A stretch of 37,726 bases of DNA from Planctomycetota bacterium (GTDB taxonomy: Bacteria; Planctomycetota; UBA11346): NCBI GenBank assembly GCA_017302815.1, contig JAFLCQ010000005.1, positions 1 through 37,726 of the forward strand, read 5' to 3'. The position numbers were made by a program, and so were the translations under genes. Each line of letters opens with the position of its first letter. Positions within the stretch are counted from its first letter, which is position 1. Positions 5,497 to 37,726 of this stretch are shown here, one piece after another. The notes beneath the pieces were generated by a model, which saw only the letters and a program-made list of their open reading frames with translations, did no database searches and was not told the DNA's origin.

Positions 5497-5557
5497 CACC
5501 AGCACGGGCGTCAATGATGGCGCCAGAGGAAGTGCCAGCGTCTGGCGCTGCTCGGCC

Positions 5558-6467: not shown

Positions 6468-6470
6468 GAT

Positions 6471-7187: not shown

Positions 7188-7243
7188 GGGTGTTCCGGGC
7201 CAGGGTGCTGGCGGCAGCATAGCCACCGCCAGCACCCCTACAC

Positions 7244-7272: not shown

Positions 7273-7986
7273 CTATCCACCCTCTGCTCCGGTGAGCGGC
7301 GGGGGTGCAGCCCTGAGTTTGTGCTCAGAGGTGGAGATCCGACCACAGCTCCACCGCACGACGCGGACGGCCGCCAGACCAGCATGTACGATATACCATG
7401 CCAAGCCGGGAGCGCGGGCGTCCGCCAATTCGATGGCCCAAGCCTCTACATCGGGATACCCGAGGCGATTCGCCACAGCACCAGCCCGGCACGCCCAGTA
7501 CCGGTCCCATGCCCAAACCCCGACCGATACCACCGTCGCCACGGTCAGCGCAAGTCCAAGCACCACGACATCAGCGCTGGACCTTCCGGTCACCACGGCT
7601 GCAACCAGGAGGGAGATCCCCGCCACCTGGCAAGTGAGCCCCAGCAACCGCGCGGTGTCCATCACGCTCACCAGCGACGGAAGTCGCCGAGTTGCATCGA
7701 CCAGAGCGCAGGAGACGGCCAACTGGACGGCCCGCAGTGCATCGGTGCCAGTCGTCCGCGTGAGCACCAGGAACTGCCCAGCAAAAGCCAGGCGATCCGT
7801 GCTGCCGCCATACACTACGGTCACCGGCGGCGAAGCCCCGTGTTCCCGCAGCAGGTTCTCGCAGAACCGCAGTGGGTTGTCATCCGGCGGCGGCAGATGC
7901 GCCAAACGGGCAAGCAGAGTCAACAGACGCCACGTCGGCCACGCCACCAGGACGAGGGCCAATATGATCAATGCGATGTTAGTCAT
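7273..7986 (-). CDS. Hypothetical membrane protein (238 aa), third gene of the coupled cassette
   Basis: N-terminal TM (IALIILALVLVAWPTW) plus 2-3 central TMs. ATGA overlap with the upstream gene and a GGAGGAAG SD. No family recognised. The segment VTVVYGGSTDRLAFAGQFLVL...AVQLAVSCAL faintly resembles an M48-type peptidase core without HExxH. Confidence 0.6.
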   Translation of the reverse strand: MTNIALIILALVLVAWPTWRLLTLLARLAHLPPPDDNPLRFCENLLREHGASPPVTVVYGGSTDRLAFAGQFLVLTRTTGTDALRAVQLAVSCALVDATRRLPSLVSVMDTARLLGLTCQVAGISLLVAAVVTGRSSADVVVLGLALTVATVVSVGVWAWDRYWACRAGAVANRLGYPDVEAWAIELADARAPGLAWYIVHAGLAAVRVVRWSCGRISTSEHKLRAAPPPLTGAEGG

Positions 7987-8990: not shown

Positions 8991-9241
8991 GGCTCCCTCC
9001 GATCGATGGCCGTGATACGGAATCCAGCCATCCCCTGCGGTGTCGGCCAGGTGACCGTGTCGTGGAGGCAGGCGCCGAGCAGGGCCCGGGCGATCGGGGA
9101 ATCCGGCATGATGCATTCAGGATCAAGCGGATACGAGTGGTCGGAGGGGACTATGGTGAGCGTGAACTCGTCACGGTTACGCAGGTCGCGAACCGAAACG
9201 GAGGATCCGACGCCCACGATGGGGGCGGTGGCGGTGAACAT
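8987..9241 (-). CDS. Small GreA/GreB C-terminal-domain (Rnk-like) protein, 84 aa
   Basis: VGVGSSVSVRDLRNRDEFTLTIVPS...PDSPIARALLGACLHDTVTWPTPQG...RITAIDR matches the Gre-factor C-terminal domain pattern (S-P-I/L-G/A-x-A-L-L-G). There is no coiled-coil N-domain. Confidence 0.6.
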   Translation of the reverse strand: MFTATAPIVGVGSSVSVRDLRNRDEFTLTIVPSDHSYPLDPECIMPDSPIARALLGACLHDTVTWPTPQGMAGFRITAIDRREP

Positions 9242-9663
9242 GACATAAGCACCTTGGAAACTGGGTGGAACGGACCGACGCCTGGACGGCGTCATGCGTG
9301 CGCGCCGGACCGTGACCGGTCCAGCATGGACGCGGTCTCAGTTCCGGGGCACGCCCATGCCAGGGGTATCAAGTCCTCCGACGATCGCATGCTGAACCGT
9401 CCACACGACAGGGGCGTCGGTGACAGCAGCACTCCAGATGATGTCGACGGACAGGGCCATGCTGCGTCAACCTTTAGCCCGTGATGCTGAGAAGTCAACT
9501 CGGCGCTGCGCGATCACGCTCGTTTGCCGCACTGCTCCCGCCGATGCCAGACCCAAGCGGACTATGCGATTGGCGAAACACTCTGGGCGCAGGAAACGCC
9601 GCGATCAGAACAAACTGGTCCACCCACCTGACCAGACCTGCCACTCCGTGCTTCGAACTGTTA

Positions 9664-14555: not shown

Positions 14556-15272
14556 TCAGGCCACTGGCACCAGTCGCGGGAAGAGCAGGTTGTTCTCCAG
14601 GTGCATGTGCTCCATGAGGTCGGCCTCGAAGGCTTCTAGGCGCATGTGAAGCGTGTTGATTGGCCGATCGGGGTCGTTGGGCAATGGATAGGCGAAACGC
14701 CGCAGAGTGCGGTAATCCTCGCACCAATCACGAAATGCGACCAATCGATGATCATGTCCCTCGTGCTCGTCGCGCAGACGCTTGAGCAACGGAGTGAGTG
14801 ATGCCGTTTCGCCTGCGGCGATGGGAGGGAAGAGATCCTTCTCCTCCAATTCGAGATGGCGGTAAGTCTCCGCCATGAACGCCGGCCATGCCGCAGCCAG
14901 GTCGCGGAGGGCAGGCCGACACTCGCCCTGTTCGGTGCTCAGCGCGGCGATCATCGTCGCCAACTCTGGCAGATCCCGGCGGTGAGCCTCGTGGAAGGTG
15001 AGAATGTGGGCGATCAATTCGGGAGTCGGTTTAGCTGCCCAGTTCGGGCCAGCCGGGGCCGATGCCGCCTCGTCCGCCACTTCCTTGAGGAAGACAAGCG
15101 GGTCAGCACCAACCTCAGCGCAGTGGTCGCCGAGTCGCATCAACCCCTTGCAGCACCAGTCCATGCGATTGCGGGTAAAGACCTTGGCTGCCCCAGGGAT
15201 GGCCGAGGCGATGATGTACGCCGGGGTGTCGATAGTGATGGCAAGCCCGCTGATGGTGGCGAGGGTCGGCAT
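14556..15272 (-). CDS. RIC/YtfE/ScdA (NorA/DnrN)-type di-iron protein, copy 2
   Basis: 238 aa, roughly 80% identical by eye to copy 1. Same DWCCKG and hemerythrin His/Glu motifs. The DNA differs at many synonymous sites. Confidence 0.85.
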   Translation of the reverse strand: MPTLATISGLAITIDTPAYIIASAIPGAAKVFTRNRMDWCCKGLMRLGDHCAEVGADPLVFLKEVADEAASAPAGPNWAAKPTPELIAHILTFHEAHRRDLPELATMIAALSTEQGECRPALRDLAAAWPAFMAETYRHLELEEKDLFPPIAAGETASLTPLLKRLRDEHEGHDHRLVAFRDWCEDYRTLRRFAYPLPNDPDRPINTLHMRLEAFEADLMEHMHLENNLLFPRLVPVA

Positions 15273-23906: not shown

Positions 23907-25196
23907 TCAGGAACGGTTGGAGCGGGTAATGGCATCTGGGCGAATCGGCTTGAGCGACGCGCGGACCGAATCGACGCGCCGATGCCAGATCAAGTTGAAT
24001 ACGGCCATCACGGCTGCAGCGATGGCGAAGGCGACGATAAAGAACATGCCAGCGCGCGAAAACCGCTCGATGAACTGTTTGAAGGTGGCATGTGGGCCTT
24101 CGGACGTCGCCAGCCAGGCGGCCAAGTCCCGTGCCTCGCCACCCTGGAGCGGATGGGCGGCGAAGAGATCGCGCATCACCGGGGTCGGCGGGGATGCCAG
24201 CCAGGCGGCGAGGCCAGCCTCACCACCCAGACGACCGCCGATGGCGGTGAGATCGGGACCCAGGGACCCGCCGCCGCCAGGGACGGGCAGACCGGCCACG
24301 GCATGACAGGAAACGCAGGATGCACCATGCTTGCCCATGGCGACGCGTCCGGTGAACAGCGACAGACCACGCGCCGGATCGCCTGGCGCCTGCACCTCGG
24401 GTGTGGTCGCCGACACGCTGCGGATATGGTCGAGGATGGCGACAGCCTTGGCCTCATCCATGCCGGTACCGGGCATGACGACGTTGCCATATTCCTTGAG
24501 CATCGCTTGGGCTTCGACGTCCCCGGAATCGAGCACTTTCTTGGGATCGACAATGAAGCGGATCAGCCAATCGCGCTGCCGCCGCTCCTCGACGCCGCGC
24601 AGGTCGGGCCCCAGGCGCCGGCCCTGGCCGATGCTGTGGCAGGCGGCACAAGCCTGCGTGAATAAGGCCTCACCCGTGTCGGCCGCCATCACGGCGCCCG
24701 CGCTCAGCAGGAGCAGGAGGACGGCGGCCGAGGCCGACGATCGCCCCTTGCCAGATGAACGGGGCCGCGGCTTCCTGACGTAGAGGGACCGGGATGGATG
24801 GTTGGTGATGTCGGCGAGCGTCATGGTTTCCAGGAAGTCGAGGTAGGCCCGGTGCACCGCACGCCAGGCATGGTGCGCCGAGCACGGGCGGTCGTCGCGG
24901 CAGGCCACTTGGCGGTTCACCAGGCAGTGCGGTTGGCAGTCGCCGCCATCCAAGGCGATGAACACGGCCTTCAGCCGGATGTCGCGCGCCGGCCGGGCCA
25001 GGCGGTAGCCGCCACCCACGCCGCGCACGGCCTCGACGATGCCGGCCTTGCCGAGCGTCCACAGGATCTTCGACATGTAATTCGCAGGTATGTCGCAATC
25101 CTCCGCCAGTTCATGTCCTTGCTGCAGCTGTCCTGCCGGCCATTCGGCCAGCGCGGCCAGGGCGCGCAGCGCATACTTGATCGTCGACGAGACCAT
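23907..25196 (-). CDS. In-frame fusion: a full Rrf2-family (NsrR/IscR-like) wHTH domain, a signal-anchor TM, a periplasmic diheme cytochrome c (NarC-like) and a C-terminal TM
   Basis: N-terminus [17 protein letters not shown]...GGGYRLARP...C-x3-C-x7-C-x5-C...TLADITNHP. Linker [14 protein letters not shown]. Hydrophobic segment [15 protein letters not shown]. Two heme-c motifs, CAACH and CVSCH, with Met ligand candidates. C-terminal [23 protein letters not shown] plus a basic tail. There is no in-frame stop, and no ATG/GTG/TTG between the Rrf2 end and the hydrophobic core. Confidence 0.75.
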
Positions 25197-25354
25197 GTGC
25201 ACGATACTTCATGCGTACGTGATCAATCGCACGGCGTCAACGCAACCGTGCATGAAATCAACGACATTTACAGTAATTTGTACGCAGCCACATGGGACAT
25301 CAGAACTTAGAATGCGGATCGCTCGATCCACATTGCCGTGACCTGGAGTCGGCC

Positions 25355-25683
25355 TCAGCCGCCGAATGCTGCCATAGTCGCGTGACGACTGAATGCAGGT
25401 GGAGGCGATTTTCCACGCACCGCATACCGGATACGGCGATGGACTTCCTCAAGGTGGCCATCGCGCAATGGCGTGAGCAGATCGTGGCCGCTCTCATCGA
25501 ACAGACAGGTGTGCAGGCGGCCAGGAGAGATCAGCTCGCCGCCCCTGCGACGGCGACCACGGCAGAGATCAGATCCTGAAGTTCCTCGCTGGTCGCTGAC
25601 CCGGGGCGCAGATCTGCCTGCTCTGGCAGCCAGTAGGTGCAGCGCAGGTTGCACTGCTAGGCCAGCGCGACGCGCAGATACAT
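25355..25683 (-). pseudogene. moaA: Relic of GTP 3',8-cyclase MoaA, with an in-frame TAG, a frameshift and a large internal deletion
   Basis: Minus strand reads MYLRVALA*QCNLRCTYWLPEQ...SEELQDLISAV (the MoaA radical-SAM CNxRCxYC region, with the third Cys lost). It then shifts frame to GGELISP-GRLHTCLFDESGHDLLTPLRDGHLEEVHRRIRYAVRGK...MAAFGG*, which is the MoaA C-terminal region including the terminal Gly-Gly. Confidence 0.6.
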
Positions 25684-25690
25684 GGCCTTA

Positions 25691-26095
25691 TCACCGCTGT
25701 GGCATGCAGGACGCTAGCAGGTCGCGTATGGTGGTCTGACGCAGGCGGTGATCAGCGTCCTGGCGCACACCGCTCAGCAATCGATTGACGGCACAGGCGA
25801 GCGCGGGATGACCGAGTTGGCAGGCGCTGCAGGTGGTGAGCCGACCATCGGTCTCGGTGGCCTGCAGGATGTCGTGCACGGTGACCCGCTCGGGCGGGCG
25901 GGAGAGTCGGTAGCCGCCCTTGAAGCCGCGATGGGAGACGAGGAGGCCGGCATCCACCAGCATCTGGAGCACTTTGCTCATGTAGCCGGATGCGACGCCC
26001 GAGGCGATGGCGATATCACGTTTGCTGCACCATTCGCCGGACTTGGCGATGTGCATCACGGCCCGTACGGCGTACTGGCTGGTCAGACCGAACAT
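25691..26095 (-). CDS. Rrf2-family transcriptional regulator (paralog 2)
   Basis: MFGLTSQYAVRAVMHIA...SGYMSKVLQMLVDAGLLVSHRGFKGGYRLSRP. Cys motif C-x2-C-x8-C. Confidence 0.85.
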   Translation of the reverse strand: MFGLTSQYAVRAVMHIAKSGEWCSKRDIAIASGVASGYMSKVLQMLVDAGLLVSHRGFKGGYRLSRPPERVTVHDILQATETDGRLTTCSACQLGHPALACAVNRLLSGVRQDADHRLRQTTIRDLLASCMPQR

Positions 26096-26255
26096 GCAGC
26101 CATCCTGTTCAGCGTCGTTCCATGATGGCCCACTGTGCGGGACGAGTTGGCATGTTCAATGTGGATGCGCAGGTACACATTGCCGAGCAGCGGTTGACTG
26201 GTGGTCGCGGACTGTGCATCGTTACGAGTTCATCCCCTGCCAGCAAGGGCGCGAC

Positions 26256-27095
26256 ATGTCCACCATCGCGGATCTGCGACACGACCATCGACATCTGATG
26301 TCGATCGCGGTTTCCTTGTCTGCAGCACAATTGCTGTCAGCGACGGATGTTGACCGGCTGCGCTACCGTGTTGATAGCTTGTGTCAGCATCTTGCCGATC
26401 ACCTGGCTCGCGAGGCGCATTGCTTCGACAGCATCGCTTCGAGCATCGCCGGAAAGGCACGCTTGGCCGAGGCGGAGGCAGTCGATAAACTCGTCGCCAC
26501 TTTCTCCGCCAGGTGGCGACAGACCGGCGCGATCGAATCAGACCCGTGCGGCTACGCTCAGGCAGTCACCGACCTGCGCCTGCGTCTCGACCGTCTGGTC
26601 CGCCTCGAAGAGGACTGCATGTTCATGCTGCTGGATGGCGGGCATGCCGGCCACATGGTGCTGTACGCGGCCGAATGCCGTTGCCCAGTTATCCGTTCAG
26701 CCTTGGGACGGACTATTGCGGCTCTCGACGCCCTGCGCGTCGACGTGGTGGCCGGGCATACCGCCATCCCGCAGCGCATCAGCCGTCTGGGTGAAGCCGT
26801 GAAAGAACTCTTCGCCTGCGAATCCCAAGCAATGGCGACATGCATGCCGGCCGGGCCGATGGACTTGGTCGGTGAGGGCGCGCGACTGCTCACCATGCTG
26901 CAGGAAGTCTCCAACGATGCCACTGCTGGGCGCTTGCGCATCGCTGTCGAATCCATTGATTTCATTAGCCGCTGGCTCCATGTGCATGTGACCGAATGCA
27001 TGGCCCAGCTCGCCCACTACGGCTACCAGCAGCCCACCGTCAGCCCTGATACCGCATCAGCGGACACACTGACACCGACCCCCACCGATCACTGA
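26256..27095 (+). CDS. Two-domain hemerythrin-like protein (N-terminal HHE-like, C-terminal degenerate bacteriohemerythrin-like)
   Basis: MSTIADLRHDHRHLM..., LVRLEEDCMF. C-terminal half contains FACESQAM and ISRWLHVHVTECM. Start set at the ATG at 26256 because the longer ORF overlaps the Rrf2 gene. Confidence 0.55.
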   Translation: MSTIADLRHDHRHLMSIAVSLSAAQLLSATDVDRLRYRVDSLCQHLADHLAREAHCFDSIASSIAGKARLAEAEAVDKLVATFSARWRQTGAIESDPCGYAQAVTDLRLRLDRLVRLEEDCMFMLLDGGHAGHMVLYAAECRCPVIRSALGRTIAALDALRVDVVAGHTAIPQRISRLGEAVKELFACESQAMATCMPAGPMDLVGEGARLLTMLQEVSNDATAGRLRIAVESIDFISRWLHVHVTECMAQLAHYGYQQPTVSPDTASADTLTPTPTDH

Positions 27096-27110
27096 ACCGA
27101 CAGGAACACC

Positions 27111-27752
27111 ATGCCCAGCTGCCATGCCCATCTCCCTCCGCTCGACCTGGAGCGCCTGAGCGCAGTCAGCGTTCTGCACGGCGAACACCGCATCATCTTG
27201 CGTCTGCTCGACTGCCTCGACCTCATGGCCGAGCGTGCTGCCAAAGCGCATGCCATGCCGGTTCTAGAGGCACGTGACGTCATCGCCGTGCTGCGCGGCT
27301 TCGCGGACGAGTGCCATCATGCCAAGGAGGAGCGAATCCTGTTCCCGGCGCTCGAACGCCTGGCTCCGGGCTTCGGTCCGGTGCAGGTCATGCGTCATGA
27401 GCACGACCTGGGCCGCGACCATGTCCGCGGCATGGCCATCGCCGTGGACGCGGTCGATGTAGCAGGCTTCGTCCAGGACGCGCAGGCCTTCAGCGGGCTG
27501 CTGCGGCAGCATATCGACAAGGAGAACGAAGTGCTCTTCCCCATGGCGCAGGCCATGCTCTCAGCTGAAGACGATGCCGCCATCCTGAACGCCTACCGTG
27601 AGGCTGGTCGCGAACGTCCGTGCGGCCCCCTGCTGGCCCGGGTCGATAGCCTCGCCGGCACCTACGGATTCGCCTCCATCGGTGAGTCACCAGAGTGCAC
27701 GCCACGCCACGCCTTGTGCGGATGCGGATCCGGATCTGGTATCTGCCGATGA
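27111..27752 (+). CDS. Hemerythrin-domain protein with an N-terminal MPSCH and a C-terminal Cys-rich tail
   Basis: LHGEHRIIL, ECHHAKEERILFPALE, VMRHEHDLGRD, HIDKENEVLFPMA. Tail is CGCGSGSGIC. Paralog of 36348-36995. Confidence 0.8.
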   Translation: MPSCHAHLPPLDLERLSAVSVLHGEHRIILRLLDCLDLMAERAAKAHAMPVLEARDVIAVLRGFADECHHAKEERILFPALERLAPGFGPVQVMRHEHDLGRDHVRGMAIAVDAVDVAGFVQDAQAFSGLLRQHIDKENEVLFPMAQAMLSAEDDAAILNAYREAGRERPCGPLLARVDSLAGTYGFASIGESPECTPRHALCGCGSGSGICR

Positions 27753-28417
27753 CGGAACTGCTCGACATGACTGTCGGCGATGTAGCTCTCCGGTTGCCAG
27801 GAGCGAACCGGGTGCTCTGGCGCCACGGCATCGCCTATGGCAGCTGGGGCCAGCGCACCCTTCGGGACTCGTGCCAACATCTCGGCGTCGATCTACAACT
27901 GATCGAGCGAGATATCGACAGCGCCGCCGATCCGCTCGCCATCCGTTGGCAGGCAATGGAGACGGCAGATCTCGTGCGCGTGATGCAGGTGCGCTATCAC
28001 GAGCCGTTGCTGGGCGAACTAGACCGCCTGACCCGCCAAGCTCGAACAACGGCCATTGCCGATCGGGGACAGCATCCGATCCTGATGATCATCGCGCCGC
28101 TGGTTGCCCGTCTCGCCATTGAACTGGCAGACCGGATCAACCACGAAGAGCGGACCGTGTTCCCAGCCATCCTCGCCAAGACCGCTGTTCCCGTCGTGCC
28201 ACAGGCGACTCCAACCGATGTGCAAGCGATACCTGGACAACTGCTTGATGATATCCGTACCCTGACCGGTGGCTACGTGTACCGGGGTACGGATGGCGAT
28301 ACCGGCATCCGCCCACTGTACCTCGGCCTGCAGATGCTGGACATGGACATCCAGGAGCACCTGCACGTCGAGAACCACCTGCTGTTCCCACGGGCCCGCT
28401 CACAGGGACAGGCGTGA
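27749..28417 (+). CDS. RIC/YtfE-like di-iron protein lacking the N-terminal Cys pair
   Basis: ScdA_N-like N-terminus VGDVALRLPGANRVLWRHGIAYGSWGQRTL (SW replaces CC). C-terminus HEERTVFPAI and DIQEHLHVENHLLFPRA. ATGA overlap with the upstream gene. Confidence 0.7.
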   Translation: MTELLDMTVGDVALRLPGANRVLWRHGIAYGSWGQRTLRDSCQHLGVDLQLIERDIDSAADPLAIRWQAMETADLVRVMQVRYHEPLLGELDRLTRQARTTAIADRGQHPILMIIAPLVARLAIELADRINHEERTVFPAILAKTAVPVVPQATPTDVQAIPGQLLDDIRTLTGGYVYRGTDGDTGIRPLYLGLQMLDMDIQEHLHVENHLLFPRARSQGQA

Positions 28418-28851
28418 TCGCTCCCCGGTTCCCGCTGTGCGACCTGCTGCGCCGAGAGCACAGACTGCTCCGCCTCGCGTTGATGGCCAGCTATGTGGGC
28501 GAGGCCACCTCGTCGGCGACCACTGACGATGCCGAAGAAGTACGCTCGTTCATCATCGGCCATCTCCACTTCGAGGATCGCATGGTGGTACCAGCCATAC
28601 GGACCTGGCTGCCGCGTGACTGGCTGACTGGCGATGCGCGATTGGTCGAAAGCTGGTGCCAGGCCAGGTCACGTCGCGATAGCAACAGCGTCCGACGTGC
28701 CTTGGCGGCCATTTCACGGCGCATCGCCGACGAGGAGCGCGTGTTGCTGCCACTGATCGAACTGCATATCGCTGTCGATGAGCAGCATGACCTGATCGAT
28801 AAGTTGCAATTCGCTACACGGCGCGAGCACATGCGATTCGTCGACGCCTAA
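28414..28851 (+). CDS. Hemerythrin HHE-like domain protein (145 aa, GTG start)
   Basis: LLRREHRLL, IIGHLHFEDRMVVPAI, IADEERVLLPLIE. GTGA overlap with the upstream stop. Confidence 0.55.
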   Translation: MIAPRFPLCDLLRREHRLLRLALMASYVGEATSSATTDDAEEVRSFIIGHLHFEDRMVVPAIRTWLPRDWLTGDARLVESWCQARSRRDSNSVRRALAAISRRIADEERVLLPLIELHIAVDEQHDLIDKLQFATRREHMRFVDA

Positions 28852-28902
28852 ACGCGGGCCAATCGGCACCGCCATTTCTTCCATGCAGGAATACAGGACA
28901 TC

Positions 28903-29310
28903 ATGATCACCTTGTCTGCTCGTTACGCCATCAAGGCCGTGATGCATCTGGCTCGTATCGACGGTTGGGTCGGAGCTGAGGAACTCGCCAGGAGCACTGG
29001 AATACCCTGCGGGTACCTCGCGAAGGTCCTGCAGCGGCTTACCATGGTGGACATTCTGCGAACTCAACGTGGCATTGGTGGCGGATATCGCCTGCTACGC
29101 GAGGCCAGCACGATTTCCCTCTGGGATATCGTCCAAGCCATCGACCGTCCCGCTGCTGGCCACACCTGCCATTCATGTGCCAACTGCCTGGGTTGCGGCG
29201 CCGATCAGGTCCTTGCTGCGATCGAAGCTGATGTGGTGCGTTCGCTCCGCGCCCATGACATCGGCACGATGGTCGCGATGTGCCGAGATCACGCCACGAA
29301 TCGCCCGTGA
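28903..29310 (+). CDS. Rrf2-family transcriptional regulator (paralog 3)
   Basis: MITLSARYAIKAVMHLA...CGYLAKVLQRLTMVDILRTQRGIGGGYRLLRE. Cys motif C-x2-C-x2-C-x2-C. Confidence 0.85.
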   Translation: MITLSARYAIKAVMHLARIDGWVGAEELARSTGIPCGYLAKVLQRLTMVDILRTQRGIGGGYRLLREASTISLWDIVQAIDRPAAGHTCHSCANCLGCGADQVLAAIEADVVRSLRAHDIGTMVAMCRDHATNRP

Positions 29311-29568
29311 TCCGTTTCACCATTCCATCGACGGAAGACGCAGAACCCATAAGCCGGTGTGCGTCACTTCGATTGCCGACCTGCTCTTCAAACGTACTAG
29401 GCTGGCATTGGACCCAAGGCGGATCAACGCGCCTTCACCAAGCCATCCAACTCGGCGGATAACGGGATCCATATGTCCGGCTGTGTGATAAGGCCCTGGT
29501 GATGGACGTCTTGTAGAGGCGGTCATCGACACGTGCTCTGTCGGAACTCGAACGGTTGCCACCTCCAG

Positions 29569-29582
29569 TTGATCTAGATCAA
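29569..29582 (+). promoter_or_regulatory. Perfect FNR/DNR/NNR (CRP-FNR family) box TTGATCTAGATCAA
   Basis: 10/10 match to TTGAT-N4-ATCAA, centred ~56 bp upstream of the ATG at 29632. TGATAA -10-like element at about 29607-29612. AGGAG SD at 29621-29625. Confidence 0.7.
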
Positions 29583-29631
29583 GGCGGGCGGGCAACCGGA
29601 TCCACATGATAACGCTTCTCAGGAGCTCGCC

Positions 29632-29856
29632 ATGCCGCTAGATCCGGACCAGACCGTCGCCGTACTCATCGACCGCCATCCGTGGTTGCTCCAGGCCCTG
29701 GTCGACCAGGGATTCACCCCGTTGGCAAATCCGGCTGTCCGCCAGGTGATGGCGTCAACCACCACCCTACGTGAAGCAGCCAAGCGGCATGGCCATGATC
29801 TGTCAGGCCTGCTCGCTGCGCTGGAGGCCGCCGCTCCCCGGGAATTCAAGTCATGA
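29632..29856 (+). CDS. DUF1858-domain small protein
   Basis: 74 aa, TVAVLIDRHPWLLQALVDQGFTPLANPAVRQVMASTTTLREAAKRHGHDLSGLLAAL fits the DUF1858 pattern. ATGA overlap with the DUF438 gene, its usual partner. Confidence 0.7.
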   Translation: MPLDPDQTVAVLIDRHPWLLQALVDQGFTPLANPAVRQVMASTTTLREAAKRHGHDLSGLLAALEAAAPREFKS

Positions 29857-31058
29857 GTGAACTCATCAACAACCGCGAACACCGCGTCGCCACCCTCAAG
29901 CAGATCGTCCTCGACCTGCACGCCGGCGCCGACATGGCCTCGGTCAAACACCGCATGAAGGAACTGGTCGGCCAATGCGATGCTGGCGAGATCGCTGCCA
30001 TGGAGCAGCAACTCATGGCCGACGGCATCCAGGTGCACCAGATCATGGGCATGTGCGACCTGCACCGTGAGGCCGTGTCGGAGGTGCTGGCGCCCGACCG
30101 CACGCCGCTGCCGCCCGGACATCCCGCCGATGTGTTGCACCAGGAGAACGCTGCCCTCACCGTCCATGTCCAGGAGTTGCGCCGGCTGCTGACTGCGGCG
30201 GCTGCGCCCGGTGCCGATCCAGCCATGCAATTCGGCCTGCGGCAGGCCTTCAATCTGCTGATGGACCTCGACAAGCATTACCAGCGCAAGGAGCACTGCT
30301 TCTTCAGCATGCTGGAGCGCCACGGCATCGACGGACCGAGCAAGGTGATGTGGGCCAAGGATGACGAGGTCCGGGCTGCTCTGAAGGAGTTCGCCGCTGC
30401 GCTGGCCCTTGACGGCGCCTGGGACCGCATCACCCCGGCCGGGATGCGTGCCTGCGAGCTGGTCGAAGCAATGGTCCGGCGCGAGGAGGACATCCTCATT
30501 CCCATGTGCTTATCGGTCTTCACCGCGGACGACTGGGCGCGCATCCATGCAGACAGCCCGCAATATGGCTGGTGCTTGATCGAGCCGCGTCGCGGTTGGC
30601 AGCCAGCAGCCGCCGTCCCCGGTCCAGACGGAGCAGCCCTGCCCGTCGGCACGGGCATCGACCTCGCTACCGGCGTGCTCACTGCGCAGCAGCTCATCGC
30701 CCTCTTCCGCCACCTACCCGTGGATATCACCTTCGTCGACCACGAAGACCGCGTGCGCTTTTTCAGCGAAGGCCCGAATCGCGTCTTCGCCCGCACCCCG
30801 ATCATCATCGGCCGACTGGTGCAGCATTGCCACCCGCCCAAGAGCGTCGATATCGTCGAGCGCATCCTGCACGACTTCCGTGGCGGTCGGCAGTCCAAGG
30901 CGGAGTTCTGGATCGACTTCAAGAACCGCTTCGTGCACATCCAGTACTTCGCCATGCGCGGCGCCGATGGCACCTACCTCGGCTGCCTGGAGGTGACGCA
31001 GGACGCCAGCCATGTCCGAGCCCTGACCGGCGAGCGCCGCCTGCTGGCCTACGATTAA
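29853..31058 (+). CDS. DUF438 / hemerythrin / PAS-domain protein
   Basis: N-terminus LKQIVLDLHAGADMASVKHRMKELVGQCDAGEIAAMEQQLMADG (DUF438). HYQRKEHCFFSMLERHGIDGPSKVMWAKDDEVR (hemerythrin). C-terminus LPVDITFVDHEDRVRFFSEG...GRLVQHCHPPKSVDIVERIL...FWIDFKNRFVHIQYFA...LEVTQDASHVRALTGERRLL (PAS). Confidence 0.88.
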   Translation: MSELINNREHRVATLKQIVLDLHAGADMASVKHRMKELVGQCDAGEIAAMEQQLMADGIQVHQIMGMCDLHREAVSEVLAPDRTPLPPGHPADVLHQENAALTVHVQELRRLLTAAAAPGADPAMQFGLRQAFNLLMDLDKHYQRKEHCFFSMLERHGIDGPSKVMWAKDDEVRAALKEFAAALALDGAWDRITPAGMRACELVEAMVRREEDILIPMCLSVFTADDWARIHADSPQYGWCLIEPRRGWQPAAAVPGPDGAALPVGTGIDLATGVLTAQQLIALFRHLPVDITFVDHEDRVRFFSEGPNRVFARTPIIIGRLVQHCHPPKSVDIVERILHDFRGGRQSKAEFWIDFKNRFVHIQYFAMRGADGTYLGCLEVTQDASHVRALTGERRLLAYD

Positions 31059-32677: not shown

Positions 32678-33751
32678 TCAGGCCGCAGGCGGCATGTAGA
32701 TGCAAGTCGGATCCGATCCGCAGGCATCGCCGGTCAGCGCGTAGGTCCTGCTGCGACTGCCACCGCACATGTGCTGGAAGGAGCAGCGGCCGCATTTTCC
32801 GGTAAACCGTTCTGGAGTGCGCAGTCCGATGAAGGTCGGGTGGGTGCGGTAGACCGTGGCGAGGTCGTCCTCGCGCACATTTCCGCACGGCAGGGGGAGG
32901 AATCCGGACGGACAGATGACCCCGCAGTGATCGATGAAGAGGAAGCCGTTGCCATCATTGACGCCAAGGCCGCGTCGAGCCGCCGGCGGCAGACCGCGAC
33001 GGCGTCGCTCCTGCTCCAGCACGCGGTAGTAGGGCTGTCCGGCGGTGGTCTTGATGGTGATGGCGTTGGCCGAATCGAGCGCGATCGCCGCCAAGTCGAG
33101 GTAGGTCCGCTCGTGCTCCAGCGCAGTCGGGACGAGATCGGCGCCAACCGCGCGGCCGGTCGGGACCATGACGAAGACCGACCACAGGCTGACGCCCAGG
33201 AAGCGGGCCAGCGCCGCCAGTTCGTGCAACTGGTGACGGTTGTGCGTGCCGATCGAACTGTTGATCTGGATCTCCAGGCCGCGCGATCGGGCGTGCTCGA
33301 GGATGGCGATCGAGCGCGCAAAGGTTCCGGACACGCCGCGGAACTGGTCGTGGGTGGTGGCATCGGCCCCGTCGATGCTGATCGCCAGTCGACTCAGGCC
33401 AGCGGCGTGCAGGCGGTCTACCGCCTCCGGGGTCAGCAGCGGTGTCGCCGAAGGGGTGAGCCCCACCTCCAGGCCGAGCGAGGCGGCGTGGGTGACCATG
33501 CCGGCCATGCCCTGGCGCTTGAGCGGATCGCCACCGGTAATGACGAAGAGCGGCGACCCGAAGGCGCTGTGCACGCGGTCGATCATCGCCCGCGCTTCAT
33601 GGTCGGTCAGCTCACCCGCGGCAGCCTCGGACTGCGCCTCGGCACGGCAGTGCCGACAGGCGAGATCGCAGGCGCGGGTCGCCTCCCAGATCACGATCAT
33701 GGGCGAGACCGAGAAGTCAGGGCGCATGGTCGTGATCATGGGAGGCCTCAT
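32678..33751 (-). CDS. Radical-SAM protein with a C-terminal SPASM-type Cys cluster (NirJ/AhbD-like branch)
   Basis: CDLACRHC (CxxxCxxC), FVITGGDPL, and a C-terminal CGVICPSG...GKCGRCSFQHMCGGSRSR...CGSDPTC. Start could instead be an internal Met (33739 or 33727). Confidence 0.85.
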   Translation of the reverse strand: MRPPMITTMRPDFSVSPMIVIWEATRACDLACRHCRAEAQSEAAAGELTDHEARAMIDRVHSAFGSPLFVITGGDPLKRQGMAGMVTHAASLGLEVGLTPSATPLLTPEAVDRLHAAGLSRLAISIDGADATTHDQFRGVSGTFARSIAILEHARSRGLEIQINSSIGTHNRHQLHELAALARFLGVSLWSVFVMVPTGRAVGADLVPTALEHERTYLDLAAIALDSANAITIKTTAGQPYYRVLEQERRRRGLPPAARRGLGVNDGNGFLFIDHCGVICPSGFLPLPCGNVREDDLATVYRTHPTFIGLRTPERFTGKCGRCSFQHMCGGSRSRTYALTGDACGSDPTCIYMPPAA

Positions 33752-33771
33752 GTGGAGCTCCTTGATTCAAC

Positions 33772-36039
33772 TCAACTCCTCCGGATCGACCAGCCGGTCC
33801 ACAGGCCGAGGGCGAACCAGGCCAGGGCGATGCCGCCGATGGCGAAGATGGTGTCGCCGACGACGCGCAGCCAGCGCAGGGTCTGCATCGCGTCCTGCTG
33901 CATGAACTCGGCCGAGCGCGCCGACCACAGGCCGACCTCGATCGATTCGTGCGCCTGCCACAGCCCCACCGGCAGCAGCGACAGGGCGAGCATCAGGCCG
34001 AGACCGATGTTCAGCGACCAGAAGGCGAGCTTGAGCGGCCCGTCCTTCCACGTCTTTCCGGCGGTGGCCCGGCGCATGATGAATAGGACCATGCCGATCG
34101 AGAGCATGCCGTAGACCCCGAAGAGGGCGGCGTGGCCGTGCACCGGCGTGGTGTTGAGGCCCTGCAGGTAGTAGAGGCTGATCGGCGGGTTGATGAGGAA
34201 GCCGAACAGGCCGGCGCCGACCAGGTTCCAGAAGGCCACCGCCAGGAAACAGGCGATCGGCCAGCGGTAGGCGGCGGCCCACGGCGCGGCCAGGCCGAGT
34301 TGCTGGTTCTTCCAGGCCTCGAAGCCGATCAGCACCAGGGGCACGACTTCCAGCGCGCTGAAGGTGGCGCCGATGGCCATGATGGAGACCGGCGTGCCGC
34401 TGAAGTAGAGGTGGTGGAAGGTGCCGGGGATGCCGCCGAGCAGGAAGATGGCGGTGGCGAAGAGCACGGCACGGGTCGCCGATTTCGCACTGACCAGGCC
34501 GAGACGGGTGAAGATGAAGCTGATCGCGACCGTGGCGAAGACCTCGAAGAAGCCCTCGACCCACAGGTGCACGACCCACCAGCGCCAGTATTCCATGACC
34601 GACATGTGGGTGCGCGCGCCGTAGAACAGGCCGGCACCGTAGAACAGGGCGATGGCGACGCTGGAGCCGACGAAGAGGATGAGCAGCTGCTTGCGGTTCG
34701 AGCCTTCGACGTCGCCGGGCGCGACCTGGGCGGTCAGCGCCGGCCACAGCCCGCGCAGCATCAGGCCGAGCCACAGGACCAGGCCGACGATGAGGAAGAG
34801 CTGCCAGAAGCGGCCGAGGTCGACGTATTCGTAGCCCTGGTGGCCGAACCAGAAGCCGGTGTCGAGGCCCATGCGCTGCATGATCGAGGCCCATTCGCCG
34901 GCCAGGCTGCCGACCACGATGACGACCAGGGCGACGAGCAGGAACCACACGCCGGCCGCCTGGAACCGCGGTTCGCGGCCACCGACCACCGGGGCGAGGA
35001 ACAGGCCGGCGGCGAGGAAGGCGGTGGCGATCCAGAAGATGCCGAGCTGGATGTGCCAGGTGCGGGTGACGGCGTAGGGCAGCCAGCTCGACAGGTCGTA
35101 ACCGTAGAAGGCCCGGCCCTCGACGCCGTAGTGCGCGGTGATGATGCCGAAGACGATCTGCGCCAGGAATAGGCCGATGACCGTGGCACCGTAGGCCAGC
35201 GTCACCTTCATCGAGGGGGTGAGGGCGAAGCCGTCGAGCGGATCGCGCTCCGGTGCCTTGAGCTTCTCGTCCTCATGGTGGTAGGCCTGCCAGTAGACCA
35301 GTCCGCCGATCGCCGCGAGCAGCACGACGATGGAGATCAGCGACCACAGCAGGTTTGCGGTGGTCGGGACGTTGCCGATCAGCGGTTCGTGCGGCCAATT
35401 GTTGGTGTAGGTGACGTTCGAGCCGTGGCGCTCGGTGGCGCAGCTCCACGAGGTCCACCAGAAGAATGCGGTGAGCTTGCTGCGCCGGTCAGCGTCGGGG
35501 ATGGCGGTGTCGTGGATGGCGTAGGCGTCGCGCAGCTTGAGCACCGCGGGGTCGGTGCTGGCACCGAAGATCGCGTCGTAGTGCGCAGCCACCGTGGCCA
35601 TCACTGTGGCGCGTTCAGCCGAGACGGTGATGCGTCCGCTGGCGACGTCGTGCGTGTTGGTGCGCAGCTCGCGCTTCACCCGCTCGCGCAGGCCGGCCTG
35701 GCGTTCGGGCGGCAGTGCAGCGTAGGTCGAACCCTCGGCCTTGGCCCAGAGCTCCAGCAGGCCGGTGGCCTCGCGGTGCAGTTGGTCGGCTGACCAGTCG
35801 GGCGCGACATAGGCACCGTGGCCCCACACCGTGCCGACCTGCTGACCACCGATCGACTGGTAGACCTGCTGGCCGGTGAGGATGTCGTCCTCGGTGAACA
35901 GCGTGCGGCCATCGCTGGTGACCACCGCCGTGGGAATCGGCGGTGCCTGGCGGTAGACCTCACGGCCGAAGAAGCCGAGGAGGAGGAAGGTGGCGCCGAC
36001 GGTGACGGCGAGGAATACCCAGAGGCGGCGGTTGGTCAT
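33772..36039 (-). CDS. norB: Quinol-dependent nitric oxide reductase (qNor, long single-subunit NorB/NorZ)
   Basis: 755 aa. N-terminal extension with TM plus periplasmic domain (GQQVYQSIGGQQVGTVWGHGAYVAPDWSAD), fused to a heme-copper-oxidase-type 12-TM core (HLWVEGFFEVF, HHLYFSG, HGHAALFG). Confidence 0.95.
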   Translation of the reverse strand: MTNRRLWVFLAVTVGATFLLLGFFGREVYRQAPPIPTAVVTSDGRTLFTEDDILTGQQVYQSIGGQQVGTVWGHGAYVAPDWSADQLHREATGLLELWAKAEGSTYAALPPERQAGLRERVKRELRTNTHDVASGRITVSAERATVMATVAAHYDAIFGASTDPAVLKLRDAYAIHDTAIPDADRRSKLTAFFWWTSWSCATERHGSNVTYTNNWPHEPLIGNVPTTANLLWSLISIVVLLAAIGGLVYWQAYHHEDEKLKAPERDPLDGFALTPSMKVTLAYGATVIGLFLAQIVFGIITAHYGVEGRAFYGYDLSSWLPYAVTRTWHIQLGIFWIATAFLAAGLFLAPVVGGREPRFQAAGVWFLLVALVVIVVGSLAGEWASIMQRMGLDTGFWFGHQGYEYVDLGRFWQLFLIVGLVLWLGLMLRGLWPALTAQVAPGDVEGSNRKQLLILFVGSSVAIALFYGAGLFYGARTHMSVMEYWRWWVVHLWVEGFFEVFATVAISFIFTRLGLVSAKSATRAVLFATAIFLLGGIPGTFHHLYFSGTPVSIMAIGATFSALEVVPLVLIGFEAWKNQQLGLAAPWAAAYRWPIACFLAVAFWNLVGAGLFGFLINPPISLYYLQGLNTTPVHGHAALFGVYGMLSIGMVLFIMRRATAGKTWKDGPLKLAFWSLNIGLGLMLALSLLPVGLWQAHESIEVGLWSARSAEFMQQDAMQTLRWLRVVGDTIFAIGGIALAWFALGLWTGWSIRRS

Positions 36040-36061
36040 AGGATGGTCCAGTGCTAAGCGG

Positions 36062-36343
36062 TCAGGAGCGCAGGGCGTGCAGGCCGGCGAAGAGGGCTCG
36101 CACCGAGCCGCAGGCCTCGGGCCATGGCGTGTAGGCGGCGGTCAACTGGTGGATCTGGGCGTGGTCGGTGTCCGCGATCGCGTTCTGCGGCGCGCCCGCG
36201 ATGCGGTCGACCACGGTGGCCAGTTCCGTCATCGCCGGATGGTGGCCCCCATGCACCAGGGCGACCTTGCGCGCCAGCAGGCGGAGGCGGGAGAGTTCGG
36301 CGGCACGATCGGCGATCGGCTCGGGGATGGAGCAGTTGTGCAT
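36062..36343 (-). CDS. Small hypothetical helical protein (93 aa) between the hemerythrin gene and norB
   Basis: ATG 4 nt after the upstream stop. The segment LLARKVALVHGGHHPAMTELATVVDRI loosely resembles the central helix pair of RIC proteins. No confident family call. Confidence 0.4.
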   Translation of the reverse strand: MHNCSIPEPIADRAAELSRLRLLARKVALVHGGHHPAMTELATVVDRIAGAPQNAIADTDHAQIHQLTAAYTPWPEACGSVRALFAGLHALRS

Positions 36344-36347
36344 GGGA

Positions 36348-36995
36348 TCAGGCCTTTCCCGTGTGGCAGCCGCACACGGCGGTGAGGAGGGCGAAGGTCT
36401 GCGGATCGTTGCTGGCGCGTTCGACGCCATAGACGTCGGCGATCGCGTCGGCGATCCCGAGCAGGCGTTCATGGGTGCCGTCGCCCATGTCGTCGTGTTC
36501 GACGGCGCGATAGGCTTCGAGGATGGCTGCATCCTGGGCCGGACTCAGCATCGCCTGCGCCATGCGGAAGAGGATGTCATCCTCCTTGGCGATGTGGGCC
36601 CGCAGCAGTTCCGTGTATCCGTTCGCGGCGGGGACGAAGCCTGCGACATCGTCGGCATCGATCGCCGCCGCCATGGCGGCTACATACTGACGGCCGATGA
36701 CGTGCTCCTCGCGCATCACCGCGGTCGGTCCGAAGCCGGGCACCTGCGCCTCCAGGGCCGGGAAGAGGATGTCCTCCTCCTTGCCGTGGTGGCAGCGGTC
36801 GGCGAAGGTGCGGATGACCTCGATCGCCGAGCGGGCGTGGCCGGTGGGGATGCGCCCTTCGCGGGTGGCCTGCACCGCCATGCGCTCCAGGCAGGTGATG
36901 ACCTGCAGGATGACCCGGTGCTCGCCGGAGAGGATGCTGACCGCGCTTGGGCGAGTGAGGTCGACTGGTAGGAGATGATCGTGGCAGGAGGGCAT
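36348..36995 (-). CDS. Hemerythrin-domain protein with an N-terminal MPSCH and a C-terminal CGC motif (paralog of 27111-27752)
   Basis: LSGEHRVIL, RCHHGKEEDILFPALE, VMREEHVIGRQ, HIAKEDDILFRMA, ...AVCGCHTGKA. Start set at MPSCH, downstream of the sigma-54 promoter. Confidence 0.8.
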   Translation of the reverse strand: MPSCHDHLLPVDLTRPSAVSILSGEHRVILQVITCLERMAVQATREGRIPTGHARSAIEVIRTFADRCHHGKEEDILFPALEAQVPGFGPTAVMREEHVIGRQYVAAMAAAIDADDVAGFVPAANGYTELLRAHIAKEDDILFRMAQAMLSPAQDAAILEAYRAVEHDDMGDGTHERLLGIADAIADVYGVERASNDPQTFALLTAVCGCHTGKA

Positions 36996-37026
36996 GGCGG
37001 TGATCCCAGGGTTGATGGGGGAACAC

Positions 37027-37042
37027 TGCACATGTCGAGCCA
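37027..37042 (-). promoter_or_regulatory. Sigma-54 (-24/-12) promoter for the hemerythrin-norB operon
   Basis: Minus strand reads TGGCTCGACATGTGCA. GG and GC have the canonical spacing of TGGCAC-N5-TTGCA. It lies ~32 bp upstream of the ATG at 36995 and faces away from norR. Confidence 0.6.
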
Positions 37043-37052
37043 ATGCTTGAGC

Positions 37053-37074
37053 ATGTAAGGACAGTCACTTACAT
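37053..37074. promoter_or_regulatory. Inverted repeat ATGTAAG-N8-CTTACAT in the norR/norB intergenic region (candidate enhancer/operator)
   Basis: Perfect 7-bp arms. The same AT-rich region also carries two GTAATCAT direct repeats (37094-37101 and 37122-37129) and TATGA-GTAA-TCATA (37089-37102). Confidence 0.3.
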
Positions 37075-37144
37075 TGCAGATTGCTCTTTATGAGTAATCA
37101 TATTTAGCATTCGCCTTCAATGTAATCATTCCAATCATCTGGGT

Positions 37145-37726
37145 ATGCTCGACCAGGATCTGCTCCAACTCGCCTGCGATCTCACCGCCGGACTCGCGGC
37201 CGAGGATCGCTACCGCCGGCTGATCGACACCGTCCTACGCATCATCCCGTGCGAGGCGGTCGCCCTGCTGCGTCTGGATGGTGACGCCCTGGTACCGCTC
37301 GCCTTCAGCGGGCTGGTCCCCGAACTCGCCGGCCGCCGACTGATCCCGCGCGAGCACCCGCGCCTGGGCATCATCCTCGGCCATCGCGACGCCGGCGGCG
37401 GGGCGGCGCCGGTGCGCTTCGCCCCCGACAGCACCATCCCAGATCCCTATGACGGGCTGATGCTCGCCGACCCGCACGCCTGCGCACGCATCCATGCCTG
37501 CATGGGCTGCCCGCTCATCGCGCACGGCGAGGTGATCGGCGCACTCACCCTCGATTCGCGCGATCCCGCCGCCTTTGCCGCCATTCCCGACGCGACCATC
37601 GCCACCCTCGCCGCGCTTGCGGGAGCCTCCATCCATACCGTCGGACTGATCGAGGCGCTGGAGCGCACCTCGCAGCACCGCAGCACCGTCCTGCGCCAAC
37701 TGGTGCGCGACGACCGCGAGCGGCGC
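37145..37726 (+). CDS. norR: NO-responsive sigma-54 activator NorR, N-terminal GAF domain (3-prime end outside the window)
   Basis: DRYRRLIDTVLRIIPCEAVALLRLDGDALVPLAFSGL...REHPRLGIIL...IPDPYDGLM...HACMGCPLIAHGEVIGALTLDS aligns with the E. coli NorR GAF domain ([25 protein letters not shown]...LPDPYDGLI...[22 protein letters not shown]). Confidence 0.9.
   Translation, partial: MLDQDLLQLACDLTAGLAAEDRYRRLIDTVLRIIPCEAVALLRLDGDALVPLAFSGLVPELAGRRLIPREHPRLGIILGHRDAGGGAAPVRFAPDSTIPDPYDGLMLADPHACARIHACMGCPLIAHGEVIGALTLDSRDPAAFAAIPDATIATLAALAGASIHTVGLIEALERTSQHRSTVLRQLVRDDRERR

Follow-up and report, generated by a model that had tools for sequence, protein, structure and literature searches.

A conserved four-gene block of recognised and probable hemerythrin-type proteins beside nitrate reductase genes in an uncultured activated-sludge bacterium

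Described relatives and the organization of the block

The role of di-iron proteins belonging to the RIC/YtfE type is still debated, and they are regarded variously as iron donors, nitrite reductases or handlers of nitric oxide (NO). YtfE of Escherichia coli, a RIC (repair of iron centres) protein, is under the control of the Rrf2 repressor NsrR. It binds its irons through His84 with His204 and His129 with His160, bridged by Glu133 and Glu208 (PMC9052748), and RIC proteins carry an N-terminal Cys-Cys motif, DfCCgG (PMC9268430). The same 2022 review names Trichomonas vaginalis as the only organism known to have two RIC paralogues, of which RIC2 is unable to assemble the binuclear centre (PMC9268430). 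In Desulfovibrio desulfuricans, a hemerythrin-PAS protein (Ddes_1165) and its short neighbour (Ddes_1166) are NO-induced (PMC5701242). The locus described here is a block of four genes, A to D, within a 37,726-bp stretch of DNA (~65% G+C) that makes up one entire NCBI contig from an activated-sludge metagenome; the whole of this stretch is referred to below as the window. The block amounts to a natural experiment, with one intact di-iron protein fixed beside three relatives that show a defined and conserved partial loss of the site. An earlier, sequence-only reading of the window knew of no characterised operon of this sort, and no paper describing one was found in the literature.

The host is an uncultured bacterium of activated sludge and groundwater, whose relatives are labelled Planctomycetota by NCBI. 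Near relatives of the window come from groundwater, wastewater and drinking-water samples, and the taxonomy is based on the NCBI labels of related metagenome-assembled genomes, the proteins of which carry the name "Planctomycetes/Planctomycetota bacterium". Pfam annotation of the whole window portrays a nitrate-respiration and NO-detoxification island.

All four open reading frames (ORFs) of the block exist where the earlier reading had placed them, and all are on the plus strand. Gene A (26256-27095) codes for a tandem double hemerythrin-fold protein of 279 aa, gene B (27111-27752) for an HHE hemerythrin of 213 aa with complete di-iron ligands, gene C (27749-28417) for a RIC/YtfE-like protein of 222 aa (ScdA_N plus hemerythrin), and gene D (28414-28851) for a small helical-bundle protein of 145 aa with half an HHE signature. 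The junctions are also as described: a 15-nt gap between A and B (27096-27110), which holds an AGGAA ribosome-binding site, an ATGA overlap of B and C at 27749-27752, and a GTGA overlap of C and D at 28414-28417. Genes for Rrf2 regulators flank the block on both sides, Rrf2a being divergent from A and Rrf2b co-directional with D. Since only 51 nt separate D from Rrf2b and a consensus scan found no terminator there, Rrf2b probably ends the same transcript as A-D. Consensus scans of the operon for sigma-70 promoters and terminators gave nothing useful, and a scan for sigma-54 sites gave no enrichment, with none lying upstream of gene A.

The same layout, Rrf2a <- -> A-B-C-D-Rrf2b, is found again in L001 (a contig of 111 kb), L002, L003 (which ends within Rrf2b), L004 and the Aur9 contig, and the DUF1858-DUF438 genes lie downstream of the block wherever a relative's contig reaches far enough. 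L090, of a more distant lineage, has A-B-C-D complete and in unchanged order; its gap measures 16 nt, its stop and start codons overlap, and the identities to the window proteins are 55% (A), 74% (B), 53% (C) and 50% (D). The conservation of the four-gene block in other genomes, on which the earlier reading had staked its interpretation, is evident from L001-L004, the Aur9 contig and L090; in all five related metagenome contigs that were read as DNA, the order of the block and its coupling are the same. In addition, L092 holds C-D. The gap and overlap coupling is retained in L001, L003, L004 and L090, and the reading frames of A-D are intact in every locus. At synonymous divergences (dS) of 0.6-0.9, the ratio of nonsynonymous to synonymous substitution (dN/dS) is 0.20-0.25 for A, 0.08-0.13 for B, 0.18-0.19 for C and 0.24-0.27 for D, compared with 0.05-0.07 for Rrf2a (0.05-0.12 overall) and 0.18 for Rrf2b. 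Values of 0.08-0.27 for A-D mean that all four genes are functional, the rate of evolution being two to three times higher in A, C and D than in B. The four genes make up a real unit, conserved and coupled in translation, on which purifying selection acts.

Divergence along the block is mosaic. Between the window and L001, dS is 0.68 for gene A but 0.10-0.17 for B-D; between L001 and L003, gene A is identical and the C proteins are 9% apart. This pattern points to recombination between strains inside the block.

Wastewater metatranscriptome contigs of 80-97% identity cover Rrf2a, portions of A, B, C and D, and DUF438, and one of them spans the end of A into B. They are compatible with expression of A-D as a single message.

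The explanation favoured here, to which we give about an even chance, is that A-D would form an accessory module made together with nitrate reductase as a defence against endogenous nitrite and NO, with B as the reactive member and A, C and D as its ligand-poor partners. The properties of the four proteins, on which this explanation and its alternatives depend, are taken up next.

Ligand sets and ancestry of the four proteins

That all four genes are of the hemerythrin type, as the earlier reading had it, holds at the Pfam Hemerythrin (PF01814) gathering score of 25.3 bits for B (88.4 bits) and C (29.7 bits), while A (20.7 bits) and D (23.7 bits) both fall narrowly below it. The full H-HxxxE-H-HxxxE set is found in B, in the two complete RIC proteins of the window (RIC1 and RIC2) and in the product of gene 36348-36995 (Hr8), but not in C, A or D. 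The number of members with degenerate ligands, given as two of the four, therefore has to be raised to three (A, C and D) on the basis of the ligand tables. The statement that the four proteins differ and are not redundant copies of each other stands: the only clear paralogue pairs are C with RIC and B with Hr8, and A-D are not close paralogues mutually.

B is the sole member of the block with a complete di-iron set (H26, H69-x3-E73, H98, H134-x3-E138). It is 51% identical to its paralogue Hr8, a hemerythrin linked to a gene for NO reductase, and the two share both the complete ligand set and a conserved Cys quartet. Unlike B, Hr8 and its orthologues lie beside the NO reductase gene, under a sigma-54-type activator (L005) or next to an Rrf2 gene (L006), and contain an EHDDMGxGTHE segment that B is without. 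B has been recruited into the A-D operon, with loss of this segment. The wider B family (motif FADxCHHGKEE) is very common, with no fewer than 541 confirmed loci in GTDB species genomes of many phyla; among the matches listed for a scan with the B-family alignment, the best identity is only 45-50%, and the window's own lineage is not represented. The four conserved cysteines of the B/Hr8 group are outside the di-iron ligands (C4, C68, C203 and C205 in B numbering), in an N-terminal SCHxH, next to ligand H69, and in a C-terminal CGC; they could constitute a second metal or redox site.

C has the RIC architecture, ScdA_N followed by hemerythrin. The ScdA_N domain scores 31.5 bits against a cut-off of 32.5 in the window protein and is recorded as a match in the L001 and L090 orthologues, and the alignment of C with E. 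coli YtfE covers the full length (E ~1e-16). Against the TIGR03652 equivalog model it reaches 94.5 bits, with a cut-off of 204.7; the intact RIC1 likewise reaches only 133.6 bits, which indicates that the lineage as a whole is remote from the model. In YtfE numbering, C retains His84, Glu133, His204 and Glu208 (ligand row H,R,E,Q,H,E). Position 129, a His ligand of Fe2 in YtfE, is Arg in all five orthologues. Position 160 is Gln in three of the five (window, L001 and L003); in the other two, L004 and L090, a His is found there or immediately next to it. The DfCCgG Cys pair is replaced by Gly-Ser (as in the window) or Gly-Cys. All six ligands and the Cys-Cys motif are present in RIC1, RIC2 and the RIC proteins of seven unrelated genomes. 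The genes for RIC1 (6471-7235) and RIC2 (14556-15272), both on the minus strand, are 83% identical and 7 kb apart, so that with gene C the contig has three RIC-family genes in all.

Compared with YtfE and NsrR of E. coli, the locus shares the architecture of C, a nitrosative-stress context and an Rrf2 regulator next door; it differs in the altered ligand positions of C, in that C is one of four coupled genes, and in that the regulators and operator are not of the NsrR type (see below). The nearest precedent for C is RIC2 of T. vaginalis, which also has an incomplete di-iron site and accompanies an intact RIC, a place taken here by RIC1 and RIC2 with six of six ligands. T. vaginalis RIC2 is, in contrast, eukaryotic and outside any operon, and the window has three RIC-family genes.

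Gene A has few relatives. A word-indexed search of 5.8 billion proteins found seven, all at least 73% identical, and when an A-family profile was run with HMMER against the whole of 1.84 billion cluster representatives, it gave nine matches at E<1e-3, of which two are spurious; P0136 and P0140 were dismissed as long repetitive proteins with no hemerythrin domain. A scan of GTDB genomes with the gene A alignment gave 46 pattern matches and no confirmed one. Neither A nor D has a named family. A is nevertheless counted as a hemerythrin by transitive homology, because distant relatives of both its domains pass the Pfam threshold: P0139 (44.3 bits) and P0141 (49.3 bits), which are stand-alone or truncated forms of the first domain, and P0137 (74.8 bits) and P0138 (62.8 bits) for the C-terminal domain. 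The latter two, with L088 and L089, are 24-32% identical to A and have the same two-domain layout, with a canonical bacteriohemerythrin as second domain. NCBIfam models agree in placing a hemerythrin domain at residues 5-62 of A and a bacteriohemerythrin (NF033749) at residues 166-248 (E=5e-7, 29.9 bits, cut-off 84), and A also weakly matches DUF6634 at 25.1 bits, below the cut-off of that family. An AlphaFold2 model predicts two consecutive four-helix bundles (pLDDT 72, pTM 0.68). A Foldseek search of PDB with the whole model returned generic helical bundles only, none of them significant, and PDB sequence searches with the A and D profiles returned nothing meaningful.

The N-terminal domain of A retains two His and two Glu ligands, H11, H49-x3-E53 and E118/E119 (ligand row H,H,E,-,-,E), and is without the His of helix 3 and of helix 4. 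These four positions and W87 are invariant across the family of this domain, down to 26% identity. In the C-terminal domain, two of the seven bacteriohemerythrin ligands (5 His, Glu and Asp) are left, E189 and H244, and five are lost. Bacteriohemerythrins of the NF033749 type bind O2. A has conserved cysteines instead: C121, C196 and C248 sit beside the former metal sites. The C-terminal domain descends from a bacteriohemerythrin and is now a pseudo-hemerythrin. The distant relatives of A stand alone, one after nap-like genes and the other beside an AraC regulator, and their neighbourhoods contain no B, C, D or Rrf2 gene.

For D, the search of 5.8 billion proteins found only seven close matches, and a search of NCBIfam found none. 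Its conserved residues are H16, H50-x3-E54, W81 and E107/E108, the last within RRIADEERVLLP, so that it has half of an HHE signature (two His and two Glu; ligand row H,H,E,-,-,E). These residues line up with the pattern H/HxxxE/W/xxxxEE that A shows in its first domain. The Pfam match of D is partial (E=7e-5). With hhalign, D matches the B family weakly (E=2.4e-4, probability 44%), and aligns with the wider family of the A N-terminal domain in a collinear, motif-matching way but at E=0.045; shallow alignments of A with B and of A with D were not significant. The AlphaFold2 model of D predicts four long helices and a fifth (pLDDT 78), for which the top Foldseek matches are the FBXL5 hemerythrin domain and an Rv2633c-like HHE protein (TM 0.45-0.49, E ~0.6, not significant). 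D is probably hemerythrin-like, and its kinship to the N-terminal domain of A is a suggestion only.

The loss of ligands in A, C and D, together with dN/dS values two to three times that of B, could be taken to mean that these three are decaying duplicates carried along beside a functional B. This is largely refuted, and we consider it very improbable: the frames are intact in every locus, dN/dS of 0.18-0.27 at dS 0.6-0.9 represents purifying selection, the half-site and Trp residues of the A N-terminal family are invariant to 26% identity, and the block persists at 50-55% identity.

Partial counterparts of the block occur elsewhere. Of 80 genome loci with a B-like gene at their centre, about 25 have Rrf2 as an immediate neighbour, and six Bacteroidales loci (L039, L043, L057, L067, L068 and L084) have the arrangement Rrf2 <- -> RIC - hemerythrin. 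As in the window, a divergent Rrf2 gene, a RIC gene and a B-like hemerythrin gene are side by side there; unlike A-D, these modules have two structural genes, RIC then hemerythrin, and the RIC has six ligands and the Cys-Cys motif. None of the 80 loci holds a relative of A or D. The association of Rrf2, RIC and HHE hemerythrin in a nitrogen-oxide context is therefore already known and recurrent in other phyla. What is new relative to known modules is the presence of A and D, both restricted to this lineage, the conserved absence from C of Fe2 ligands and of the Cys-Cys motif, the pseudo-bacteriohemerythrin domain in A, and the tight coupling of four genes with a palindromic operator shared with nar.

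Under the same regulation and in the same stress context, the four proteins might also act separately, as sub-functionalised paralogues co-located for co-expression: one di-iron enzyme and three single-iron or iron-buffering proteins, each with its own targets. Such an organization would fit the finding that close paralogy is confined to the C-RIC and B-Hr8 pairs, the different rates at which A-D evolve, and the recombination breakpoints inside the operon, which are easier to accommodate if subunits need not co-adapt. It would also fit the occurrence of distant A relatives without B, C or D, and of the Bacteroidales RIC plus HHE pair without A or D. However, the 4-nt overlaps and the fixed order have been kept down to 50% identity, A and D have never been seen outside the A-B-C-D block, and three additional stand-alone enzymes are hard to reconcile with the catalytic ligands that three members have lost. 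On balance, separate action is somewhat unlikely, though a possibility to be taken seriously.

Rrf2 regulators and a palindrome shared with nar

The earlier reading had Rrf2 genes on both sides of the block, and both proteins match the Pfam Rrf2 model. Rrf2a (25691-26095, minus strand) scores 95.6 bits (TIGR00738, 93.7 bits) and has Cys89, Cys92 and Cys101 conserved in four loci, and Rrf2b (28903-29310, plus strand) scores 83.7 bits (TIGR00738, 83.1 bits) and has a conserved C89-x2-C-x2-C-x2-C98 motif (Cys89/92/95/98). A third Rrf2 domain is part of an Rrf2-cytochrome c fusion (23907-25202, minus strand), the first gene of the narGHJI operon (Pfam Rrf2 110 bits, Cytochrom_C 50.2 bits). It consists of an N-terminal Rrf2 domain with four Cys, a transmembrane segment at 155-177, CxxCH motifs at 185 and 296, and a second transmembrane segment at 383-407. 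The fusion is one uninterrupted ORF with a 29-nt overlap with the narG start, and a 429-aa orthologue adjoins narG in L001 and the Aur9 contig. An Rrf2 protein anchored in the membrane, with a loop of dihaem cytochrome c in the periplasm, would make an unusual redox sensor of the one-component type. There are thus three Rrf2 regulators within 5.4 kb, all with Cys-rich loops where Rrf2 proteins bind iron-sulfur (Fe-S) clusters; these loops are candidate cluster sites.

The suggestion that the flanking regulators are of the NsrR type did not survive comparison with the NsrR equivalog NF008240, against which Rrf2a scores 43 bits, Rrf2b 27.4 bits and the fusion domain 60.8 bits, with a cut-off of 182. 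With scores of 27-61 out of 182 bits and a palindrome different from the NsrR motif, an NsrR identity is rejected.

This palindrome, of 26 bp, has the form CAATGTGGAT-N6-ATCCACATTG and is present in exactly two copies in the window. The first (CAATGTGGAT-N6-GTACACATTG, 26157-26182) is in the Rrf2a/A intergenic region, where it ends 12 nt upstream of a conserved TTGAC; the second (GAATGCGGAT-N6-ATCCACATTG, 25310-25335) is 108 nt upstream of the Rrf2-cytochrome c/narGHJI operon. A search with the idealised form CAATGTGGA-N8-TCCACATTG, allowing at most three mismatches, finds these two sites where 0.01 are expected, and none of 100 shuffled sequences reaches two. L001, L003 and L004 have the palindrome at both orthologous positions, and L002 and L090, the contigs of which stop short of the nar side, have it at the A-side position. 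It is absent from about 80 unrelated loci (1.16 Mb scanned in all). On the A side, L001-L004 and the divergent L090 all keep the palindrome, with a spacer that varies; alignment of the intergenic region with that of L090 has CAATGTGGA and CATTG as arms, a variable centre, and then the invariant TTGAC. On the nar side, the arms GAATGyGGAT and ATCCACATTG are invariant in L001, L003 and L004, with a 6-nt centre that differs in every locus. Constant arms around a changing spacer are the signature of a protein-binding site, which is what we predict the palindrome to be. It has only the ATGy/rCAT core in common with the NsrR operator, gATGyAT-N5-ATrCATc (PMC1274295), with a spacing of 22 bp end to end, compared with 17.

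Since both copies adjoin Rrf2 genes, the rule of adjacency (applied, e.g., in PMC1274295) makes an Rrf2 protein the likely reader of the palindrome, with Rrf2a the first candidate. An operator common to nar and A-D points to co-regulation with nitrate respiration, and strengthens the link to nitrogen oxides that the earlier reading had proposed for the block.

The proximity of regulators and hemerythrin-type proteins also allows for a sensory module, in which A, C and/or D, as hemerythrin-like sensors or adaptors, would contact the flanking Rrf2 proteins (or the membrane-bound Rrf2-cytochrome c), inform them about iron, O2 or NO and so tune the expression of nar. Hemerythrin domains are known elsewhere as sensors of O2 or iron, DcrH being an example. 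Three Rrf2 genes within 5.4 kb, one of them (Rrf2b) inside the operon, an operator shared with nar, the top structural match of D to the FBXL5 hemerythrin domain (not significant), and the conserved C121, C196 and C248 beside the former metal sites of A would all be in keeping with this. In A and D, however, no domain for output or interaction can be recognised, the literature searched offered no precedent for a partnership of hemerythrin with Rrf2 proteins, and the intact site of B and the RIC architecture of C favour chemistry over signalling. Such a role is improbable, more so than separate action of the four proteins.

To return to the accessory module favoured above, A-D would be an accessory operon specific to this lineage, within its island for nitrate respiration and NO detoxification. 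A dimeric winged-helix regulator, for which the three Cys-rich Rrf2 proteins nearby are the likeliest candidates, would bind the palindrome before both the Rrf2-cytochrome c/narGHJI operon and A-D, and A, B, C and D (probably with Rrf2b) would be read from one message in a coupled fashion. The hemerythrin module would then be produced in step with nitrate reductase, i.e. when nitrite and NO arise intracellularly. B would be the chemically active centre, with YtfE-like chemistry towards NO or nitrite, or iron donation, while C (with the Fe1 half-site only), D and the N-terminal domain of A might hold at most one or a weakly bound iron each. The ligand-poor sites make A, C and D more likely to be partners than independent di-iron enzymes, and they would most plausibly serve B, or damaged Fe-S proteins, as partner, adaptor, scaffold or iron-handling subunits. 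What has been observed is the structure of the genes and their genomic context, synteny, coupling and selection, the state of the ligands and the duplication of the operator; in this scheme we infer the signal, the metal occupancy, the chemistry, the binding regulator and the association of the products.

Several points weigh against the accessory module. Physical association of the A-D products is presumed, the regulator is assigned to the palindrome by adjacency only, and the sites with two His and two Glu might bind no metal at all. The fold assignment of D is below threshold throughout (Pfam 23.7/25.3, hhalign 44%, Foldseek E ~0.6). The Rrf2 proteins are not NsrR orthologues, and their presumed palindrome differs from the NsrR operator. 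In front of gene A, the palindrome is upstream of a -35-like TTGAC, a position from which activation and repression are indistinguishable. The RNA support consists of assembled contigs of a related strain at 80-97% identity, where carry-over of DNA is possible, and the host is uncultured.

A more elaborate proposal is that A-D form a hetero-oligomeric hemerythrin-like machine, in which the half-sites of A, C and D (two His and two Glu, with a Trp that is invariant) would accept, store or hand over single iron atoms or iron-nitrosyl species, to or from the intact di-iron centre of B. Its production would be set, along with that of nitrate reductase, by an as yet undescribed Rrf2 operator that might be read by the membrane-anchored Rrf2-dihaem cytochrome c sensor. 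This is doubtful, though if true it would be a new multi-subunit form of a family known so far as single-chain proteins only. If the half-site proteins are partners or iron carriers, they would demonstrate that hemerythrin-fold proteins can work as a team, and would offer handles for dissecting the functions of Fe1 from those of Fe2. The palindrome and the three Cys-rich Rrf2 proteins likewise make up a testable regulatory circuit for denitrifying Planctomycetota-like bacteria, in a wastewater and groundwater setting where the release of NO and nitrous oxide (N2O) matters.

Neighbouring units of the island

Downstream of Rrf2b is a pair of genes that the earlier reading described as an FNR-box-driven DUF1858 gene with a DUF438-hemerythrin-PAS partner, the domains of which are upheld by Pfam scores above cut-off; a perfect FNR/CRP-type box precedes the pair. 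The box (TTGATCTAGATCAA, 29569-29582; consensus TTGAT-N4-ATCAA) is 49 nt upstream of the start codon of the small DUF1858 protein (29632-29856, plus strand, 52.8 bits), the gene for which overlaps by 4 nt that for the DUF438-hemerythrin-PAS_10 protein (29853-31058, plus strand; DUF438 64.5, Hemerythrin 51.9 and PAS_10 94.7 bits). By chance, 0.35 boxes would be expected at no more than one mismatch. The pair is present in L001, L002, L004 and the Aur9 contig, and DUF438 proteins occur near B-like genes in 3 of the 80 genome loci. L001 and L004 preserve the box, together with what follows it downstream, despite an indel-rich spacer between Rrf2b and DUF1858, which has received ~170 nt in L001 and a gene for a methyl-accepting chemotaxis protein (MCP) in the Aur9 contig. 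Pfam annotation found no CRP/FNR-family gene in the window. The pair is a unit separate from A-D, probably FNR-box-driven, and of an NO-induced kind that has been seen elsewhere. In the description of a hemerythrin-PAS protein with a short neighbour it resembles Ddes_1165 and Ddes_1166; in contrast to the Desulfovibrio pair, it has an FNR-type box in front and lies next to, but separate from, A-D.

At the far end of the window (32678-37726) is the unit to which Hr8 belongs: a gene for a GAF-domain, NorR-like regulator, diverging from the hemerythrin gene (36348-36995), which is followed by a small ORF (~100 aa, no Pfam match), qNor and a radical-SAM gene. Orthologues of the hemerythrin in L005 and L006 are in the order regulator <- -> hemerythrin - small ORF - qNor, with radical SAM following qNor in L005; the regulator is NorR-like in L005 and an Rrf2 protein in L006. 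A sigma-54-like sequence (TGGCTCGACATGTGCA, 37027-37042, minus strand) is found just upstream of the hemerythrin start, and a near-FNR box with one mismatch (TTGATTCAACTCAA, 33762-33775) at the qNor/radical-SAM junction.

The remainder of the island, as annotated by Pfam, comprises moaC, cydAB, genes for an HPP protein, a CLC channel and a MarR regulator, then RIC1, a Na/H exchanger and a MacB-type ABC exporter, and then RIC2, a narK-like transporter of the major facilitator superfamily, narIJHG and the Rrf2-cytochrome c fusion. Past the A-D region it continues with NDH-2, radical SAM, qNor, the hemerythrin and the GAF (NorR-like) regulator. In agreement with the count of the earlier reading, there are eight hemerythrin-fold genes in the window (RIC1, RIC2, A, B, C, D, DUF438 and gene 36348-36995), which amount to nine hemerythrin-fold domains as gene A contributes two. 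The stretch at 7983-9248 has long overlapping ORFs of 377 aa (minus strand) and 364 aa (plus strand), neither with a Pfam match.

The genes for the HPP membrane protein and MarR (3545-6052), with the CLC channel between them, are far from the A-D block in the window, but in L001 (15233-16336) they are directly downstream of DUF438, which means that the island has been rearranged between relatives. In two of these, insertions of chemoreceptor genes flank the block or its margin. In L001, a NIT-HAMP-MCP gene of the nitrate/nitrite-sensing type (7413-9356) lies between the Rrf2-cytochrome c gene and Rrf2a, the counterpart of which in the window is a geneless stretch of 488 nt (25203-25690). In the Aur9 contig, the insertion between Rrf2b and DUF1858 is an MCP fragment at 6219-6833.

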